DNA from: a virus
Taxonomy: Duplodnaviria; Heunggongvirae; Uroviricota; Caudoviricetes
Length of the DNA stretch: 5,913 nucleotides
Reading direction: 5' to 3' (one strand)
Virus record (IMG/VR): IMGVR_UViG_2563366843_000008
Below the pieces are notes generated by a model, which saw nothing but the letters and a program-made list of their open reading frames with translations, was not told where the DNA came from and ran no database searches. Position numbers and translations under genes: made by a program. Each line of letters opens with the position of its first letter. Position 1 is the stretch's first letter. This document shows positions 1 to 5,913 of the stretch, one piece after another.

Positions 1-1005
1 GTCGGTCGGGCGAGCGATGATGCGGAAGGTTACCTGGATTTTTTCAAAGGCAAGATAACCGAATCCCATCTCGGCAAGGAGCTGCTGGAAAAAGTCGAGC
101 TGACGGAGGATAACGCCAGCAGACTGGAGGAGTTTTCGAAAGAGTGGAAGGACGCCAACGATAAATGGAATGCCATGTGGGGCGTCAAAATTGAGCAGAC
201 CAAAGACGGCAAACATTATGTCGCGGGGCTTGGCCTCAGCATGGAGGATACGGAGGAAGGCAAACTGAGCCAGTTCCTGGTTGCCGCTAACCGTATCGCG
301 TTTATTGACCCGGCAAACGGGAATGAAACGCCGATGTTTGTGGCGCAGGGCAACCAGATATTCATGAACGAAGTGTTCCTGAAGTATCTGACGGCTCCCA
401 CCATTACCAGCGGCGGTAATCCCCCGGCATTTTCCCTGACACCGGACGGGCGGCTGACGGCGAGAAATGCTGATATCAGCGGTAACGTGAATGCGAACTC
501 CGGGACGCTCAATAATGTCACGGTAAATGAAAACTGTACGATTAAGGGCATGCTGGAGGCGAACCAGGTCAGAGGTGACTTCGTTAAAACTGTATCCAAA
601 TCATTCCCGAAAAAGGCTGGTACGTGGGGTAACACGGAAACACCAAACGGGACGGTTACAGTCACCATTTACGATGATCATAACTTTGACCGCCAAATCA
701 TTATTCCGCCCATTATTTTTAACGGTGTGGCGTATGACGATCCGGGGAGCGGTAATAACCCGGGAGGTACGCGATACACGGGTTATGGTTTTGAAGTTCG
801 CAAAAATGGCGTATTAATCGCATCCAGAGAAACTAAAGGAGCCATTCCCGGTAGTTACAGTGCGGTTATTGATATGCCGAGTGGTGGTGGTAACGTCACT
901 CTGGAGTTTAAGATTTTCCAGAAAGGCAATCAGGGCGCAGGTAACATCACAGACTGTACGGTGATTGTGACCAAAAAAGCTGCTTCCGGTATCAGTATCC
1001 GTTGA
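1..1005 (+). CDS. J: Host specificity protein J-like central tail fibre, C-terminal portion (5'-partial; reading frame open from base 1)
   Basis: Frame 1 is open from position 1 to the TGA at 1003-1005. The translation (…[120 protein letters not shown]…) matches what I recall of the C-terminal third of phage lambda J. The last ~140 residues (from about [14 protein letters not shown]) no longer look like my recollection of lambda J. The ORF-track start at 175 is an internal Met. Confidence 0.88.
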
Positions 1006-1025
1006 AATATTTATAACCCCAATAC

Positions 1026-1050
1026 GGGCGCCAGAAATGGCGCCTTTTTT
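1026..1050 (+). terminator. Rho-independent terminator-like hairpin between J and stf
   Basis: Perfect palindromic stem GGCGCC (1027-1032) / GGCGCC (1039-1044) with loop AGAAAT, followed directly by a T6 run (1045-1050). Confidence 0.55.
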
Positions 1051-1065
1051 ATTTGTGGAGTAAGT

Positions 1066-3249
1066 ATGGCAGTACAGATTTCAGGTGTGCTGAAAGATGG
1101 TGCGGGAAAACCAATACAGAACTGCACTATTCAACTGAAGGCAAAGCGTAACAGCACCACGGTACTGGTGAACACGGTGGCCTCTGAAAATCCGGATGAA
1201 GCCGGGCGTTACAGCATGGATGTTGAGTATGGCCAGTACAGCGTTATCCTGCTTGTTGAAGGTTTTCCGCCTTCACATGCCGGAACCATTACCGTCTATG
1301 AAGGTTCCAGACCAGGTACGCTGAATGATTTTCTCGGTGCCATGACGGAAGATGATGTCATGCCGGAGGCATTGCGTCGTTTTGAGGAAATGGTGGAAGA
1401 AGCGGCACGCAACGCTGAAGCCGCCTCTCAGAGCGCAGCGGCGGCAAAGAAATCCGAAACTGCAGCGGCATCATCGAAGAACGCGGCGAAAACCTCAGAA
1501 ACGAATGCAGCTAACAGCGCACAGGCGGCAGCGGCCTTGCAGACTGCATCGGCAAACTCCGCAACAGCAGCTAAAAAATCAGAAACCAACGCGAAAAATA
1601 GCGAGACAGCCGCAAAGACGAGCGAAACCAACGCAAAGTCCAGCCAGACGGCAGCGAAGACCAGCGAAACGAATGCCAAAGCCAGTGAAACTGCGGCGAA
1701 AAGCAGTCAGGATGCAGCGGCTCAAAGCGAGAGTGCCGCAGCCAGTTCTGCAAGCGCGGCGGCTGCTTCTGCCACTGCATCAGCTAACAGTCAAAAAGCA
1801 GCAAAAACCAGTGAAACCAACGCAAAGGTGAGCGAAACAGCGGCTGCGAACTCAGCGAAAGCATCGGCAGCAAGCCAGACGGCAGCTAAAGCAAGCGAAG
1901 ATGCAGCCAGAGAGTACGCAAGCCAGGCTGCGGAGCCGTATAAATATGTCTTACAGCCGCTGCCTGATGTGTGGATACCATTTAACGATTCGCTGGATAT
2001 GATTACGGGCTTTTCGCCGTCATATAAAAAAATTGTTATTGGTGACGATGAAATAACGATGCCTGGCGACAAGATTGTTAAGTTTAAACGTGCATCGAAA
2101 GCAACCTATATTAACAAATCTGGTGTGCTGACAGAGGCTGCCATTGACGAGCCACGATTTGAACGTGATGGCCTGCTTATTGAGGGGCAAAGAACAAACT
2201 ACATGCTCAATTCGGAAAACCCTGCCAGTTGGGGGCGATCGTCAAATATGGATGTTCCCGAAACCGGGACGGATAGTTTTGGTTTTACCTATGGAAAGTT
2301 TGTCTGTAACGATTCTCTGATTGGGCAAACCTCAGCCATTAATATGGCATCAATTGCTGCAACAAAGTCAGTTGATGTCTCAGGCGATAATAAATACGTG
2401 ACAACCTCATGTCGTTTTAAAACAGAACTGCAGGTAAGGTTGCGTATCCGGTTTGATAAATATGACGGTAGCGCAACAACTTTTCTTGGTGATGCGTATA
2501 TTGATACACAAACGCTTGAAATTACTATGACAGGCGGTGCTGCCTCAAGGATTACTGCGAGAGTCAGAAAGGACGAAGCTACCGGATGGATTTTTGCAGA
2601 GGCAACAATTCAGGCAATTGATGGGGAGTTAAAAATAGGTTCTCAGATACAGTATTCTCCTAAGCAGGGCGGGGCAACCGTATCTGGTGACTATATTTAT
2701 CTGGCCACCCCACAAGTAGAAAATGGGCCTTGTGTATCATCTTTTATTATATCAGGAACGACGGCGGCGACCCGCGCAAGCGATATAGTTACAGTTCCCA
2801 TTAAGAATAATCTTTATAATCTTCCTTTTACGGTTCTTTGTGAGGTACATAAGAACTGGTATAAAACGCCAAATGCAGCGCCGCGTGTTTTTGACACCGG
2901 CGGTCATCAAACCGGAGCGGCTATTATTCTTGGCTTCGGTCGTTCAACAGATTACGACGGATTTCCTTATTGCGATATTGGAGGAGCTAACAGACGGGTA
3001 AACGAAAACGCATCGCTTGAAAAAATGGTTATGGGGATGCGTGTAAAGTCAGAGCAGTCTACGTGCTCAGTAAGTAACGGGCATATATCCAGCGAAACAA
3101 AAACCACATGGTCCTGTATTCAGAACACCGCAATTATCCGTATTGGAGGCCAGACTACAGCCGGGTTACGTCATTTATTTGGTCATGTCAGGAATTTCAG
3201 AATATGGCACAAGGCATTGACTGATGCTCAGGTGGGGGAGTCAATCTAA
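1066..3249 (+). CDS. stf: Side tail fibre protein: lambda Stf-like N-terminal domain, phage tail-fibre repeats, and a C-terminal concanavalin A-like/LamG-type lectin domain
   Basis: ATG at 1066 follows GGAG at 1056-1059. The N-terminus (MAVQISGVLKDGAGKPIQNCTIQLKAKRNSTTVLVNTVASENPDEAGRYSMDVEYGQYSVILLVEGFPPSHAGTITVYEGSRPGTLNDFLGAMTEDD) closely resembles the lambda Stf N-terminus as I recall it. Residues ~125-275 are low-complexity A/S/T/K/E repeats (…AAKTSETNAKSSQTAAKTSETNAKASET…). The C-terminal ~430 aa are non-lambda and end in …GLRHLFGHVRNFRIWHKALTDAQVGESI, which fits the terminal strand motif of Laminin-G_3/concanavalin A-like domains (G-x-[IV]-x-x-[FV]-R-I-[WY]-x-[KR]-A-L-[ST]-x-x-[EQ]-[IV]). 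Confidence 0.88.
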   Translation: MAVQISGVLKDGAGKPIQNCTIQLKAKRNSTTVLVNTVASENPDEAGRYSMDVEYGQYSVILLVEGFPPSHAGTITVYEGSRPGTLNDFLGAMTEDDVMPEALRRFEEMVEEAARNAEAASQSAAAAKKSETAAASSKNAAKTSETNAANSAQAAAALQTASANSATAAKKSETNAKNSETAAKTSETNAKSSQTAAKTSETNAKASETAAKSSQDAAAQSESAAASSASAAAASATASANSQKAAKTSETNAKVSETAAANSAKASAASQTAAKASEDAAREYASQAAEPYKYVLQPLPDVWIPFNDSLDMITGFSPSYKKIVIGDDEITMPGDKIVKFKRASKATYINKSGVLTEAAIDEPRFERDGLLIEGQRTNYMLNSENPASWGRSSNMDVPETGTDSFGFTYGKFVCNDSLIGQTSAINMASIAATKSVDVSGDNKYVTTSCRFKTELQVRLRIRFDKYDGSATTFLGDAYIDTQTLEITMTGGAASRITARVRKDEATGWIFAEATIQAIDGELKIGSQIQYSPKQGGATVSGDYIYLATPQVENGPCVSSFIISGTTAATRASDIVTVPIKNNLYNLPFTVLCEVHKNWYKTPNAAPRVFDTGGHQTGAAIILGFGRSTDYDGFPYCDIGGANRRVNENASLEKMVMGMRVKSEQSTCSVSNGHISSETKTTWSCIQNTAIIRIGGQTTAGLRHLFGHVRNFRIWHKALTDAQVGESI
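1438..1890 (+). repeat. Degenerate tandem ~42-bp coding repeats (phage tail-fibre repeat region) inside stf
   Basis: Recurring 14-aa units such as AAKTSETNAKSSQT / AAKTSETNAKASET / AAKSSQDAAAQSES correspond to a ~42-nt DNA periodicity. This low-complexity stretch also produces the spurious overlapping ORFs on both strands (1352-1831 +, 1428-1679 -, 1571-1780 -, 1791-2072 -). Confidence 0.7.
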
Positions 3250-3530
3250 TGAAAGATTTAACACTCAAATTTGAAGACAGGGCCGACTTTTCGGCCTTTA
3301 TGGATAGCACTGGCTATTATGATGACGAGTCGATGCAGGATGATATTCTTATTGACGTGATAGGTAACGTGTACAAAGAAACCGGAGAACTGACTGAAGA
3401 TGGCGAACCGGTATGTGTTAAGGAAGACGGATATTTTGTAAGCGTGCGCATCATTAATGATTCGCAAATATCGTCATTATTCGATGAATACGTGGTTGCT
3501 GTTGAGCATCAACTTCGTGGCTGGATGTGA
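3249..3530 (+). CDS. Small acidic hypothetical protein (93 aa), translationally coupled to stf; candidate fibre assembly chaperone or adaptor
   Basis: Its ATG (3249-3251) shares a base with the stf stop TAA (3247-3249), giving a TAATG overlap. A purine-rich SD-like GGGGGAG lies a few nt upstream. The product is strongly acidic (many D/E: MKDLTLKFEDRADFSAFMDSTGYYDDESMQDDILIDVIGNVYKETGELTEDGEPV…). I could not recognise a family by eye. Confidence 0.65.
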   Translation: MKDLTLKFEDRADFSAFMDSTGYYDDESMQDDILIDVIGNVYKETGELTEDGEPVCVKEDGYFVSVRIINDSQISSLFDEYVVAVEHQLRGWM

Positions 3531-3539
3531 GGAAGAAAA

Positions 3540-4580
3540 ATGGCTACATCGACAGTAATTCCTGATGACATCAAAACGCTAAAATCCGACGTTAGCAAAT
3601 TAAAAAACGATCAAGGAAGCTACGCAACAAAATTATATGTAGACAGCAAAGATGAAATCGTTGGTGACTGGTCTGCTTCATGGTATCAGCAGGTATTGCC
3701 AACTAGCGGAGCTATATTTGGGAGAAAACTCCGCTCAACTCACAGGACGGCAGGTGTTGAGGATGCGTATTGCGAACTATACCTCAAAAAATGGATAGAC
3801 AGTCCAGGTAACGCAATGGCGCGCCTTAACCTGAACGATAACGGGACAAACATTTGCTGGGACTTTACCAACCTTTATGGCGGTACGATGATTTTTCCCG
3901 GTGACAGCGGATACCTCAAAATGGGTAACTGCCTTATGTCATACAGCAAGCGTGGAAGTAACGCGCTTATTAAATTTGATTACACCGACACATTACAGAT
4001 CAAATATGCCAATCATGGGTCAACCATGACATTAAACACACAGGGAACCGCTTATGCTGGTGTTACTGCTCAATTGTGGGGCAACACCAGCCGTCCTGTT
4101 GTTTATGAAGTCGGTGTTGATGGTGGCGCTTATATGTTCTATGCGCAGAAAAATACCGATAACACCTATATGTTAAGCGTTAATGGTGCATGTCATGCCA
4201 CCGCATTTAACCAGCATTCCGACCGGGATCTGAAAGACAACATTCAGGTGATCGATAATGCAACCGACCGCATCCGTAAAATGAACGGCTATACATACAC
4301 GCTTAAAGAAAACGGTATGCCCTATGCTGGTGTCATTGCACAGGAAGCTCTGGAAGCAATCCCAGAAGTTGTAGGTTCCGCAATGAAATATCAGGACGGT
4401 GCAAGCGGATCGGAAGGTGAAGAAGGTGAACGTTATTACACAGTAGATTATTCTGGTGTTACTGGCTTGCTTGTTCAGGTAGCCAGAGAGTCAGACGACA
4501 GAATAACAGCACTGGAAGAAGAAAACGCAGAATTAAGACAAAGATTATCTGCAATTGAGGCGGCGCTTGCGTCTAAATAA
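3540..4580 (+). CDS. Tail fibre/tailspike-like protein (346 aa) with C-terminal intramolecular chaperone auto-processing domain (peptidase S74-like)
   Basis: SD GAGGA (3529-3533) sits 6 nt before the ATG at 3540. The C-terminal region contains …ACHATAFNQH-S227-DRDL-K232-DNIQVIDNATDRIRKMNGYTYTL…GVIAQEALEAIPEVV… and ends in a heptad-like helix (RITALEEENAELRQRLSAIEAALASK). The S-x4-K spacing, with Ser codon TCC at 4218-4220 and Lys codon AAA at 4233-4235, matches the catalytic Ser/Lys dyad of endosialidase-type intramolecular chaperone domains (K1F endoNF, T5 pb1). The stop codon is TAA at 4578-4580. Confidence 0.8.
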   Translation: MATSTVIPDDIKTLKSDVSKLKNDQGSYATKLYVDSKDEIVGDWSASWYQQVLPTSGAIFGRKLRSTHRTAGVEDAYCELYLKKWIDSPGNAMARLNLNDNGTNICWDFTNLYGGTMIFPGDSGYLKMGNCLMSYSKRGSNALIKFDYTDTLQIKYANHGSTMTLNTQGTAYAGVTAQLWGNTSRPVVYEVGVDGGAYMFYAQKNTDNTYMLSVNGACHATAFNQHSDRDLKDNIQVIDNATDRIRKMNGYTYTLKENGMPYAGVIAQEALEAIPEVVGSAMKYQDGASGSEGEEGERYYTVDYSGVTGLLVQVARESDDRITALEEENAELRQRLSAIEAALASK

Positions 4581-4586
4581 TATTAA

Positions 4587-4609
4587 GGGGCCGAGCGCCC
4601 CGTTTTATT
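4587..4609 (+). terminator. Rho-independent terminator closing the stf-orf93-orf346 unit
   Basis: GC stem GGGGC (4587-4591) / GCCCC (4597-4601) with loop CGAGC, then GTTTTATT; it begins 7 nt after the orf346 stop. Confidence 0.65.
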
Positions 4610-4622
4610 GGGTAGGATGAAA

Positions 4623-4916
4623 ATGGATATAACACCTTTCCTTCATGCGCTTTGTGCTGTGGCTGCGCAGGTACTGGTTGGTCTTTTTACCGGGAACTGG
4701 GCTTACGGAGCGATAGCCGGTTGTACGTTCTTCATTGCGCGTGAACACACCCAGGCAGAATATCGCTGGATTGAAATGTTCGGGCATGGCAAGCGTATGA
4801 ATATGCCGTGGTGGGGTGGTTTTGATCCGCGCGTGTGGGATATGGCAAGCCTGGTGGATTTTGCTGTGCCGGTGGTGGCGTGTCTGCTGATCTGGCTGTT
4901 GGTTAATCACGGGTGA
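4623..4916 (+). CDS. Small hydrophobic protein (~97 aa), predicted inner-membrane protein with 2-3 transmembrane segments; function unknown
   Basis: The ORF is open from 4608 (TTG) to the TGA at 4914-4916. In-frame ATGs lie at 4617 and 4623, and AGGA at 4614-4617 gives a 5-nt spacer to the ATG at 4623. Hydrophobic stretches FLHALCAVAAQVLVGLFTG, AYGAIAGCTFFIA and LVDFAVPVVACLLIWLLV are separated by a charged/aromatic loop (REHTQAEYRWIEMFGHGKRMNMPWWGGFDPRVWD). The exact start is uncertain. Confidence 0.55.
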   Translation: MDITPFLHALCAVAAQVLVGLFTGNWAYGAIAGCTFFIAREHTQAEYRWIEMFGHGKRMNMPWWGGFDPRVWDMASLVDFAVPVVACLLIWLLVNHG

Positions 4917-5072
4917 AAAAGGTGAGCTGTAAATGTCGGAGGAAGAACCATCATTGTTGGCGTGGAAGAAGTATTTGTGTTGTTGAATCATGGTCAGCGG
5001 GAGATGAAGGAAGAACTGAATAACTTGGAGGATTTGAAGTCGATACGAATGTTAAGTATTGAATAATGAATA

Positions 5073-5094
5073 AACCGCGATGAGCGGTTTTTTT
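5073..5094 (+). terminator. Rho-independent terminator (+ strand)
   Basis: Stem AACCGC (5073-5078) / GCGGTT (5084-5089), loop GATGA, followed by a T7 run (through 5094). Confidence 0.6.
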
Positions 5095-5108
5095 GTACCT
5101 GAAAAATG

Positions 5109-5138
5109 AAAGCCCGGCTGCGTCAACAGTCGGGCTTT
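5109..5138. terminator. Bidirectional intrinsic terminator-like hairpin
   Basis: A 12-bp stem AAAGCCCGGCTG (5109-5120) / CAGTCGGGCTTT (5127-5138, with one G-U pair) and loop CGTCAA. It is flanked by an A-run upstream and a T-run downstream, so either strand reads hairpin plus U-tract. It could terminate the convergent minus-strand gene and any + strand read-through. Confidence 0.5.
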
Positions 5139-5349
5139 TAGCTTTTGATAATTGCGAGTTCTAATATGGAGGTCTTCCGTGTTCAATTTTAGCGGAGGAG
5201 ACTGGATAGTGAAAGCCCTAAAATTACTGGCAAGAAGCCGAAGATTACGCCAGATTTATTATTCCACATTAGTTGCTGCGCTGATATATGCCCTGATACG
5301 TTCCCCCCGTATTGGTTGAGTTGGTAAAACTATACGGGAATTAATAAAA

Positions 5350-5913
5350 TCAGAGTCGCATCAATCGTTCCACCAGTTGTTCTTTACGGGCAACGATCCA
5401 GCCGTGTTGCTCCAGATAAAATTTAAACCGCTCCAGAGTGCATACCATCGCATCGGCGGGGACTTTTTCCGTGAACTCGACCTGACCGTGTTTATCGAAG
5501 TGGATCAGTAATGTGCATCCATTATTTTCGTTGAGGGAGTTTTGTGCTGCTGGTGGTTGTTTTTGGCTGAAATAACAGTCTTCGAGTTTTTCGAACACTT
5601 CCCACGCCTGATCGGTTTCGAGCATTTTTGCGTGGCGAGCTGCCCCGCGTTCTGTCCATAGGATGAGGGAGCGGGCTTTGGGAGATATGGGGTTTTGTGA
5701 CTTACTTAAAGTAAGTCGCAAATTTTTTAATTCTTCACCCGATGCTTTAAAAAAGTGCTTTCCTTCGACAAAACGCTCTTTGTTTCTGGTGAAGTTAACC
5801 TGGATATTCTGAATTTCGGTGCCATAAAGCTGCGCCAAAAGTTCAGTGGTAATAACAGGAATCTGGTTATGGGTGATCGGGGAGAGAGTTTCAACAGAGA
5901 TTTGAGTGGCCAT
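5350..5913 (-). CDS. ORF6N-domain (KilAC/antirepressor-like) DNA-binding protein; start lies at the window edge and may be 5'-truncated
   Basis: The minus-strand ORF ends at a TGA (reverse complement of 5350-5352). The N-terminal ~100 aa (…IPVITTELLAQLYGTEIQNIQVNFTRNKERFVEGKHFFKASGEELKNLRLT…ARSLILWTERGAARHAKMLETDQAWEVFEKL…) follow the ORF6N pattern as I recall it (LA-LYG-E…RN-ERF-E…F…EEL … TE-G-A…L…A--V). The C-terminal ~80 aa are unrecognised. The Met codon is the reverse complement of the last three bases of the window. Confidence 0.7.
   Translation of the reverse strand: MATQISVETLSPITHNQIPVITTELLAQLYGTEIQNIQVNFTRNKERFVEGKHFFKASGEELKNLRLTLSKSQNPISPKARSLILWTERGAARHAKMLETDQAWEVFEKLEDCYFSQKQPPAAQNSLNENNGCTLLIHFDKHGQVEFTEKVPADAMVCTLERFKFYLEQHGWIVARKEQLVERLMRL

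Follow-up and report, generated by a model that had tools for sequence, protein, structure and literature searches.

A highly conserved gene for a small predicted membrane protein, apparently carried at the end of phage receptor-binding cassettes, is probably not a classical moron in a lambdoid prophage

The DNA analysed here, referred to below as the window, is a stretch of 5,913 nucleotides (IMG/VR virus record IMGVR_UViG_2563366843_000008; Caudoviricetes), and constitutes the right-hand end of the tail module of a lambdoid prophage. Our subject is the gene at window positions 4623-4916 on the + strand, labelled X throughout, which follows the tail-fibre genes. A preliminary description of the sequence had put this gene forward as a candidate moron. 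We read X as accessory cargo at the end of the tail module: the locus is ordinary, and the family is abundant, unusually conserved and catalogued without a function. X is probably not a classical moron in this prophage. The features of the window are as follows (ORF, open reading frame; RBS, ribosome-binding site).

175-1005: C-terminus of J.
1066-3249: Stf-like side tail fibre gene.
3249-3530: gene for a 93-aa protein (phrog_1361), whose ATG overlaps the stf stop codon.
3540-4580, + strand: 346-aa tail fibre with a Peptidase_S74 intramolecular-chaperone domain (PF13884, 4.8e-14; phrog_4563 'tail fiber protein', 3.1e-220).
4587-4601, + strand: weak terminator-like hairpin GGGGC-CGAGC-GCCCC (5-bp GC stem, 5-nt loop), followed by GTTTTATT (-11.9 kcal/mol, z -1.5).
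4608-4916, + strand: ORF from the open reading frame listing.
4613-4617, + strand: RBS of X, TAGGA/AGGA, 5 nt before ATG 4623, read from the sequence.
4623-4916, + strand: coding sequence of X, 97 aa, stop codon TGA at 4914-4916, PHROG 1443 member.
4987-5066, + strand: truncated 3' end of a DUF4376 (Tfa-like) tail-fibre-assembly gene, by blastx and DNA identity.
5072-5090, no strand assigned: bidirectional intrinsic terminator after the Tfa-like remnant (-11.7 kcal/mol, z -4.4).
5107-5140, + strand: strong intrinsic terminator with a 14-bp stem (-24.5 kcal/mol, z -5.7).
5350-5913, - strand: complete, convergent gene for a 187-aa ORF6N antirepressor (phrog_2379, 2.5e-91).

Only 42 nt separate the stop codon of the fibre gene (4578-4580) from the start of X, and these are occupied by the hairpin and the RBS. 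Phage-21-type orthologues, which read AAGGAGGAAATA-ATGGATATA, lack an upstream in-frame ATG, and the PHROG 1443 profile, of 97 positions, begins with the residues MDIT; on both counts ATG 4623 is the most likely start of X, giving a product of 97 aa, and TTG 4608 and ATG 4617 are unlikely as starts. At the position equivalent to the RBS of X, the phage-21-type copies carry AAGGAGG. The ratio of nonsynonymous to synonymous substitution (dN/dS) among E. coli copies is 0.17-0.5, and no comparison gives a value as high as 1; distant homologues show saturation at synonymous sites (proportion of synonymous differences, pS, 0.70-0.84; of nonsynonymous differences, pN, 0.25-0.29). These alignments indicate that X is a true coding sequence, in a family under purifying selection, and its ORF, RBS and all invariant residues are intact in the window. 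An antisense ORF at 4605-4991 (128 aa) was rejected as a shadow ORF, as it matches no family and the substitution pattern fits the + frame. In composition X is a GC-rich island relative to the flanking phage genes, at 53.4% GC (55.7% at third codon positions, GC3) vs 44.5% in the fibre gene (GC3 41.6%) and 41.1% downstream.

X matches phrog_1443 over its full length (E 5.2e-58; residues 3-98 of the 99-aa translation align with positions 1-96 of the 97 in the profile), and PHROG returned two families only, both of unknown function. Both the core motif, AREHTQAEYRWI...GKR.NMPWWGGFD...D..P..C, and the size of about 97 aa are present in X. A search of 5.8 billion proteins yielded 573 homologues, nearly all of 95-103 aa and all called 'hypothetical'; together with the start at ATG 4623 and the purifying selection, these bear out the gene of some 97 codons that the preliminary description had called. 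In a profile search of 1.84 billion representatives, 430 clusters (50% identity) were recovered, nearly all of 60-145 aa, and among them there was no sign of PHROG 1443 as a domain inside a larger protein. Relatives are spread across Proteobacteria, and identity between X and members from Aeromonas and Comamonas is still 56-66%. An alignment of 30 sequences has 26 invariant columns, all present in X (D2, H8, Q16, G29, R40, E41, T43-I50, R58, M61, P62, W64-D68, W72, D79, P83, C87), with H42 nearly invariant; E41 and W72 show no variation among 104 divergent members, where H8, R40, Q44, A45, E46 and P83 are at least 90% conserved. By megablast the gene is found in 1904 of 5426 complete E. coli genomes, where carriers have a median of 2 copies and a maximum of 7, always annotated 'hypothetical protein'.

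Profile searches gave no Pfam or NCBIfam family for X, nor did a Pfam scan of the 104 divergent relatives; PADLOC gave no match at E<=1, PHROG, Pfam and NCBIfam gave no annotated exclusion or defence family, and neither a sequence relative in the PDB nor a specific fold match was found. The preliminary description had been unable to place the protein by eye, and profile searching leads to PHROG 1443 and to no named family. We found no literature on PHROG 1443 by family or locus names, nor within work on fibre-adjacent exclusion proteins, and no experimental data for the family. Its closest named members are gp24 of phage 21 (CPT_21_24, UMO75439.1, 'putative membrane protein') and TRITO_22, PERCE_24 and GALLYPH_17 of E. 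coli LF82, with 80-93% protein identity to X. All four stand after tail-fibre or tailspike genes, as X does, and none has an assigned function. They differ in cis context: in phage 21 and Perceval a 12-nt gap without a hairpin precedes the gene, Gally has its own terminator and a promoter-like region, and the window and Tritos have the hairpin and no promoter.

The AlphaFold2 (AF2) model of X, built from 30 homologues, has a mean predicted local distance difference test score (pLDDT) of 90.3, with helices at residues 4-23, 26-53 and 74-96, and hydropathy marks hydrophobic segments at residues 4-23, 26-39 and 76-95. The three hydrophobic helices and the Trp/Arg-rich loop of the preliminary description are thereby upheld; the loop, residues 40-75 (REHTQAEYRWIEMFGHGKRMNMPWWGGFDPRVWDMA), holds 4 Trp, 4 Arg and 1 Lys. 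The parts of the protein map to the window as follows (TM, transmembrane segment).

4632-4739, + strand: TM1 (residues 4-23, with invariant H8 and Q16) and TM2 (26-39), with a 2-residue turn between them, from AF2, hydropathy and invariant columns.
4740-4847, + strand: amphipathic Trp/Arg-rich loop, residues 40-75, REHTQAEYRWI..FG.GKR.NMPWWGGFD.R.W, from invariant columns and Lys+Arg bias.
4848-4907, + strand: TM3, residues 76-95, with invariant D79, P83 and C87, from AF2, hydropathy and invariant columns.

Family mean Lys+Arg content is 5.5-5.8 in the loop (40-75), whereas the TM1-TM2 turn has 0-0.1 and the C-terminal tail 0.4-0.6 (turn and tail together, 0.4-0.7). Under the positive-inside rule, this bias suggests an inner-membrane protein in an N-in/C-out orientation with a cytoplasmic loop, and would place the conserved polar and aromatic motif (H8, R40-E41-H42, Q44, E46, D68, D79) on the side of the inner membrane that faces the cytoplasm. 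The phage 21 record of the relative of X carries a SignalP signal peptide annotation. We reject a lipoprotein or a cleaved signal peptide for X, as helix 1 contains the invariant residues H8 and Q16 and a lipobox is lacking: X has no basic n-region, Cys11 is preceded by H-A-L, and the position of Cys11 varies between C, A, I, V and M in the family.

In prophages of alpha-, beta-, gamma- and delta-proteobacteria alike, the family gene comes directly after a tail fibre, tailspike or chaperone gene, often with overlapping stop and start codons. Representative arrangements are listed here (DGR, diversity-generating retroelement).

Phage 21 and Perceval: stf, 93-aa gene, X, with a 12-nt gap.
Tritos, LF82 and the window: stf, 93-aa gene, S74 fibre gene, X.
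Gally, a P22-like podophage: tailspike gene, X, int.
Desulfovibrio prophage: gene for a 935-aa pectate-lyase/S74 tailspike, X, with a 0-nt gap.
Leclercia: gene for a Tail_spike_N protein, X, with a 15-nt gap.
Chelativorans: gene for a Laminin_G_3 lectin-domain protein, X, with a 4-nt overlap.
Halomonas: gene for a DUF4376 protein, X, with a 7-nt overlap.
Comamonas-type prophages: tail genes, X, lysis cassette, with a 1-nt gap to or 4-nt overlap with a holin-like gene.
Pigmentiphaga and Comamonas nitrativorans: gene of 370-383 aa (probably the DGR target), X, bAvd/reverse transcriptase.
Aeromonas phage ACP1: intact 87-aa copy flanked by two fibre-like genes.

Across the collection, no more than 30 nt separate X from a co-oriented upstream gene at 21 of 68 assessable loci; tail proteins are the most frequent of the annotated families upstream of X, and at 14 loci a J-like protein is encoded 2-5 genes before it. 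The genes that follow X vary, and include terminators, a Pin invertase, a lysis cassette and the DGR avd-RT pair. Two virulent phages have unannotated remnants: coliphage HC6 a frameshifted one directly after a tail fibre/tailspike gene (locus L078, 3935-4094), and the Kuttervirus KFSST3 a truncated one inside the tailspike cluster (L079, 2980-3102). The position of these remnants points to the exchange of fibre cassettes with temperate phages. Read across these gene orders, X appears to be a terminal passenger that moves as the last gene of receptor-binding cassettes. X is absent from lambda PaPa and, as the two virulent phages hold broken remnants only, it appears dispensable for virions. 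The family is also found outside prophages: in several Aeromonas species a chromosomal orphan occupies one shared locus between pirin and RIO1 kinase genes, stand-alone chromosomal copies occur in Leclercia and Silvania, and in sphingomonad chromosomes X follows ligA (NAD-dependent DNA ligase) in an operon-like arrangement, with a 1-nt gap or 4-nt overlap (L069, about 870; L070, about 7900). The conserved chromosomal orphans imply that X can work without other phage genes.

Some of these loci merit separate mention. In Comamonas nitrativorans and Pigmentiphaga (L034 and L035, about 6780-10050), the family gene sits inside a DGR cassette. In Comamonas-type loci (L036, 8296-10175; L003, 8300-9521), X is followed by genes for two small multi-TM proteins, a GH108-like endolysin (HEGKFTDNPKDDGNWTGG) and Rz/Rz1-like proteins; Pfam gave no match for any protein of this lysis cassette, and their identities are read from the translations. 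At two further loci (L059 and L068) ligA is again upstream of a family gene. The 93-aa phrog_1361 protein (3249-3530) has no Pfam match, is a constant companion of this type of Stf in Escherichia, and may be a Stf chaperone; it was rejected as a conserved partner of X, as the pairing occurs only in Escherichia loci and jackhmmer found none outside. An invertible (Pin) segment, suggested by pinQ after the gene in LF82, was likewise rejected, there being no flanking inverted repeats around X in the window.

E. coli LF82 carries three copies of the family, in its Gally, Perceval and Tritos prophages, and thus provides a natural experiment in cis context. We drew on the reanalysis of stranded LF82 RNA-seq by Misson et al. 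(2023; PMC9928086), with tables of ten samples in five conditions, a mapping-quality filter (MAPQ>=30), and a moron cut-off of 51 (LB, Tritos). Values for the three copies from that source (PMC9928086) are given below (fpkm, fragments per kilobase per million; q, adjusted significance).

TRITO_22 (LF82_259): upstream sequence identical to the window; LB 10.4, prophage median 10.3; 1-17 raw reads in the ten samples; MB6 vs LB log2 fold change 0.2, q 0.22.
PERCE_24 (LF82_183): no hairpin, 12-nt gap; LB 11.5; co-varies with the upstream genes; MB6 vs LB log2 fold change 3, q 1.9e-5.
GALLYPH_17 (LF82_765): LB 18.3, prophage median 15.6; log2 fpkm 6.0-7.0 in B1 and B6, and 7.9-8.7 in macrophages; MB6 vs LB log2 fold change 4.9, q 1.3e-22.

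TRITO_22, which shares its upstream sequence with the window, hairpin included, is at prophage background and was not called a moron (PMC9928086). In macrophages TRITO_19-21 are up, at log2 fpkm 5-8, with TRITO_22 at the floor, and reads fall from 151-336 on the Tritos fibre gene to 2-6 on TRITO_22 (PMC9928086), which implies that the transcript ends at the hairpin. GALLYPH_17 is preceded by its own terminator with a 9-bp stem, then an AT-rich region containing TTAAGA-18-TAGAAT, then an AAGGAG RBS, and its expression in macrophages exceeds that of the upstream tailspike gene (PMC9928086). The same gene therefore behaves as a moron in Gally, as an operon member in Perceval, and as a silent gene in the window-type arrangement. 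As these three behaviours are set by a few dozen upstream bases, 'moron' is here a property of local cis context, not of the gene family. The independent expression in the lysogen that the preliminary description had named as its own test is thus contradicted by the window-type copy, within the limits of five conditions sampled in a different strain. A separate observation from the macrophage samples is that the stf, 93-aa and fibre genes (TRITO_19-21, PERCE_22-23; window 1066-4580) reach log2 fpkm 5-8 with portal, terminase and J near the floor (PMC9928086), which suggests that a promoter within stf, or ahead of it, works independently of the late operon.

Downstream of X, the locus bears the mark of recombination. 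From position 1 to 4987 the window matches the Tritos prophage region of LF82 at 98% identity, and homology to LF82 stops at 4987. Positions 4987-5360 have 85% DNA identity to a locus of E. coli E9 in which the final ~80 nt of a DUF4376 gene are followed by terminators and then by a Rha/antirepressor gene; blastx of 4995-5063 gives 61% identity to the last 23 aa of the E9 DUF4376 protein. From the change of homology at this point, the junction at about 4987 appears to be a recombination scar, and the downstream region a cut-off fibre-assembly gene with its own terminators. The exact junction at ~4987 occurs in none of the complete E. coli genomes in the collection. The long terminator-rich intergenic region of the preliminary description accordingly keeps its two strong terminators, and loses its simple intergenic character to the truncated Tfa-like gene at 4987-5066. 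Likewise, the terminator that it placed ahead of the gene exists as the hairpin at 4587-4601, at the end of the tail-fibre module, and is weak (z -1.5). The terminator at 5107-5140 is probably the true end of the late transcription unit, with X upstream of that end. Side observations from this part of the window include a sub-threshold Rfam match to IS009 at 4897-5005, spanning the end of X and the start of the Tfa-like remnant (27.2 bits vs a gathering score of 117; E 0.002); a 55-aa TTG-start ORF at 5152-5319 (+), probably spurious, whose product would be hydrophobic towards its C-terminus and matches no family, and which has a promoter-like site ahead of it at 5123-5152; and weak matches of the ORF6N antirepressor (5350-5913) to the PADLOC candidate defence family PDC-S05 (6.8e-9). 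No tRNA was found in the window.

In lambda, RNA polymerase modified by Q reads past terminators and continues until the late operon ends. By analogy, we tentatively favour an account, itself short of probable, in which X travels as accessory cargo with a receptor-binding cassette, is transcribed here solely by late, antiterminated read-through, and has an accessory role in the membrane at the level of the cell. Ordinary transcription would halt at the hairpin at 4587-4601 before X; Q-antiterminated late transcription would pass this weak hairpin, reach X, and end at the strong terminators at 5072-5140. We infer this route from the hairpin in front of X and the want of a promoter of its own: a crude promoter scan found no sigma-70-like site upstream of X on the + strand of 4300-4622. 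With low confidence, we suggest that X acts in the cytoplasmic membrane, in an accessory function that benefits the phage-carrying host; our leading guess, held at the same low confidence, is that it may block genome entry of incoming phages or otherwise alter the envelope. A role in the virion or in fibre assembly is less likely: a benefit to the host accords better with the autonomous expression in Gally, with the domesticated copies on chromosomes, with the decayed ones of virulent phages, and with a position comparable to that of cor, llp and gtr-type genes.

Several points weigh against this account of late-transcribed, host-serving cargo. Late expression at X is carried over from lambda biology, and the RNA-seq comes from another strain (protein 92.8% identical) in five conditions only. 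The MAPQ>=30 filter could lose reads shared by paralogues; PERCE_24 was counted under the same filter. The best promoter candidate found by eye, TTGAGG-17-TAATAT at 4555-4583, has 8 of 12 matches and is weak. The sequence conservation is unusually strong for exclusion proteins and rather enzyme-like, the predicted cytoplasm-facing motif is unexpected for a receptor blocker, and X stays constant while the neighbouring fibres change. Finally, tight translational coupling to tail and lysis genes in many prophages would fit a lytic-cycle role as well.

The gene may alternatively be a classical moron after all, expressed from the prophage under some unsampled condition and conferring superinfection exclusion or lysogenic conversion, which we consider unlikely. 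Its GC island, its place at the module end and its behaviour as dispensable cargo favour this reading, and a benefit to the host would also suit the orphans on chromosomes and the broken copies of virulent phages. In Gally, moreover, a terminator, a promoter-like site, an RBS and X occupy a conversion-gene slot, with transcription at log2 fpkm 8-8.7 in macrophages, above the upstream tailspike gene, and PERCE_24 rises 8-fold in macrophages (PMC9928086). Against this, in the window arrangement a promoter would not fit and the scan detected none, TRITO_22 is at background in all five conditions, macrophages included (PMC9928086), and X is not similar to any annotated exclusion or defence family. 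Of four moron traits, the locus has a downstream terminator and atypical composition, and lacks its own promoter and transcription from the repressed prophage; the downstream terminators counted here belong to the truncated Tfa-like gene.

Among known exclusion proteins, HK97 gp15 is encoded inside the tail-gene operon. HK97 gp15, T4 Imm and P22 SieA are small phage inner-membrane exclusion proteins, as X is predicted to be (for SieA, PMC10883804); X differs in having no similarity to an annotated PHROG, Pfam or PADLOC family, in being far more conserved, and in being silent in the lysogen in the window-type arrangement. Cor (phi80, N15 and T1) and T5 Llp are encoded beside the receptor-binding genes of siphophages; they are outer-membrane lipoproteins directed at one receptor (FhuA), whereas X is polytopic and has no lipobox. 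P22-like phages keep their O-antigen conversion genes (gtrABC, oac) in the slot between tailspike and int, the very slot of X in Gally, yet X is a single gene without a GtrA or other Pfam match, no gtrB, gtrC or oac is annotated beside the Gally copy, and in the window X is flanked by a tail fibre gene and a Tfa-like remnant, not by gtrB or gtrC.

A function in the lytic cycle, with X as a late membrane protein that tunes lysis as a holin or antiholin accessory, or that aids release or assembly of fibre-bearing virions, seems to us a distinctly poor prospect. Class I holins of the lambda S105 type are likewise of about 100 aa with three hydrophobic helices, and the Comamonas-type gene abuts a lysis cassette, 1 nt before or in 4-nt overlap with its multi-TM holin-like gene (read from translations); the short gaps at 21 of 68 loci point the same way. 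X nonetheless departs from class I holins in its 36-residue conserved TM2-TM3 loop, its C-terminal tail of 2 residues (family mean 2-4), and the existence of chromosomal orphans, which have no lysis genes nearby. X has no holin match in PHROG or Pfam, and one of its 104 relatives has a chance-level one (E 0.0036). The fibre genes lie at a distance from the S/R/Rz lysis genes in lambdoid maps, and lambdoid X stays with the former; there is no lysis gene in the window, adjacency to a lysis cassette is seen only in Comamonas-type prophages, and X is broken in two virulent phages.

About equally doubtful is the proposal that phages have acquired X as a small membrane enzyme, or as a protein that binds metals or ions, whose role is a general cellular one, with the linkage to fibre genes reflecting a recombination hot spot and not function. 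The 26 invariant columns among 30 sequences include D2, H8, E41, E46, D68 and D79, with H42 nearly so, E41 and W72 persist through all 104 divergent members, and the topology model would put these residues on one membrane face; the vertically inherited Aeromonas copies and the sphingomonad ligA-X pairs are also what a cellular role would predict. The protein has, however, no sequence or fold relative among known enzymes, at 97 aa would probably need to oligomerise for activity, and keeps its place after receptor-binding genes in four proteobacterial classes with a persistence that is hard to ascribe to chance. That X is instead a silent hitchhiker of the fibre cassette, unexpressed and heading for decay, is very improbable: the silence of TRITO_22 (PMC9928086), the patchwork of recombination scars at the locus and the copy number in carriers (median 2, up to 7) would suit it, while the intact ORF, RBS and invariant residues, dN/dS below 1 in every comparison, and the read-through that late transcription should provide all speak against it.

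By the profile searches and comparisons above, X appears to fall outside annotated exclusion and defence families, Cor/Llp lipoproteins, class I holins and GtrA-like proteins alike. A bolder proposal, which we regard as speculative and unlikely, is that the family forms a new inner-membrane class linked to receptor-binding cassettes, in which H8, E41, H42, E46, D68 and D79 would build a catalytic or metal site serving an undescribed form of exclusion or envelope conversion across alpha-, beta-, gamma- and delta-proteobacteria, and which has been repeatedly domesticated. X is among the commoner prophage genes of E. coli, and is unusually conserved for a phage protein of 97 aa. The exchange of host-range cassettes between phages tends to carry X along, including into virulent phages of the type used in therapy, which hold broken copies. 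The function of X would therefore matter for the evolution of host-range modules and for the question of what is brought along in engineered fibre swaps.

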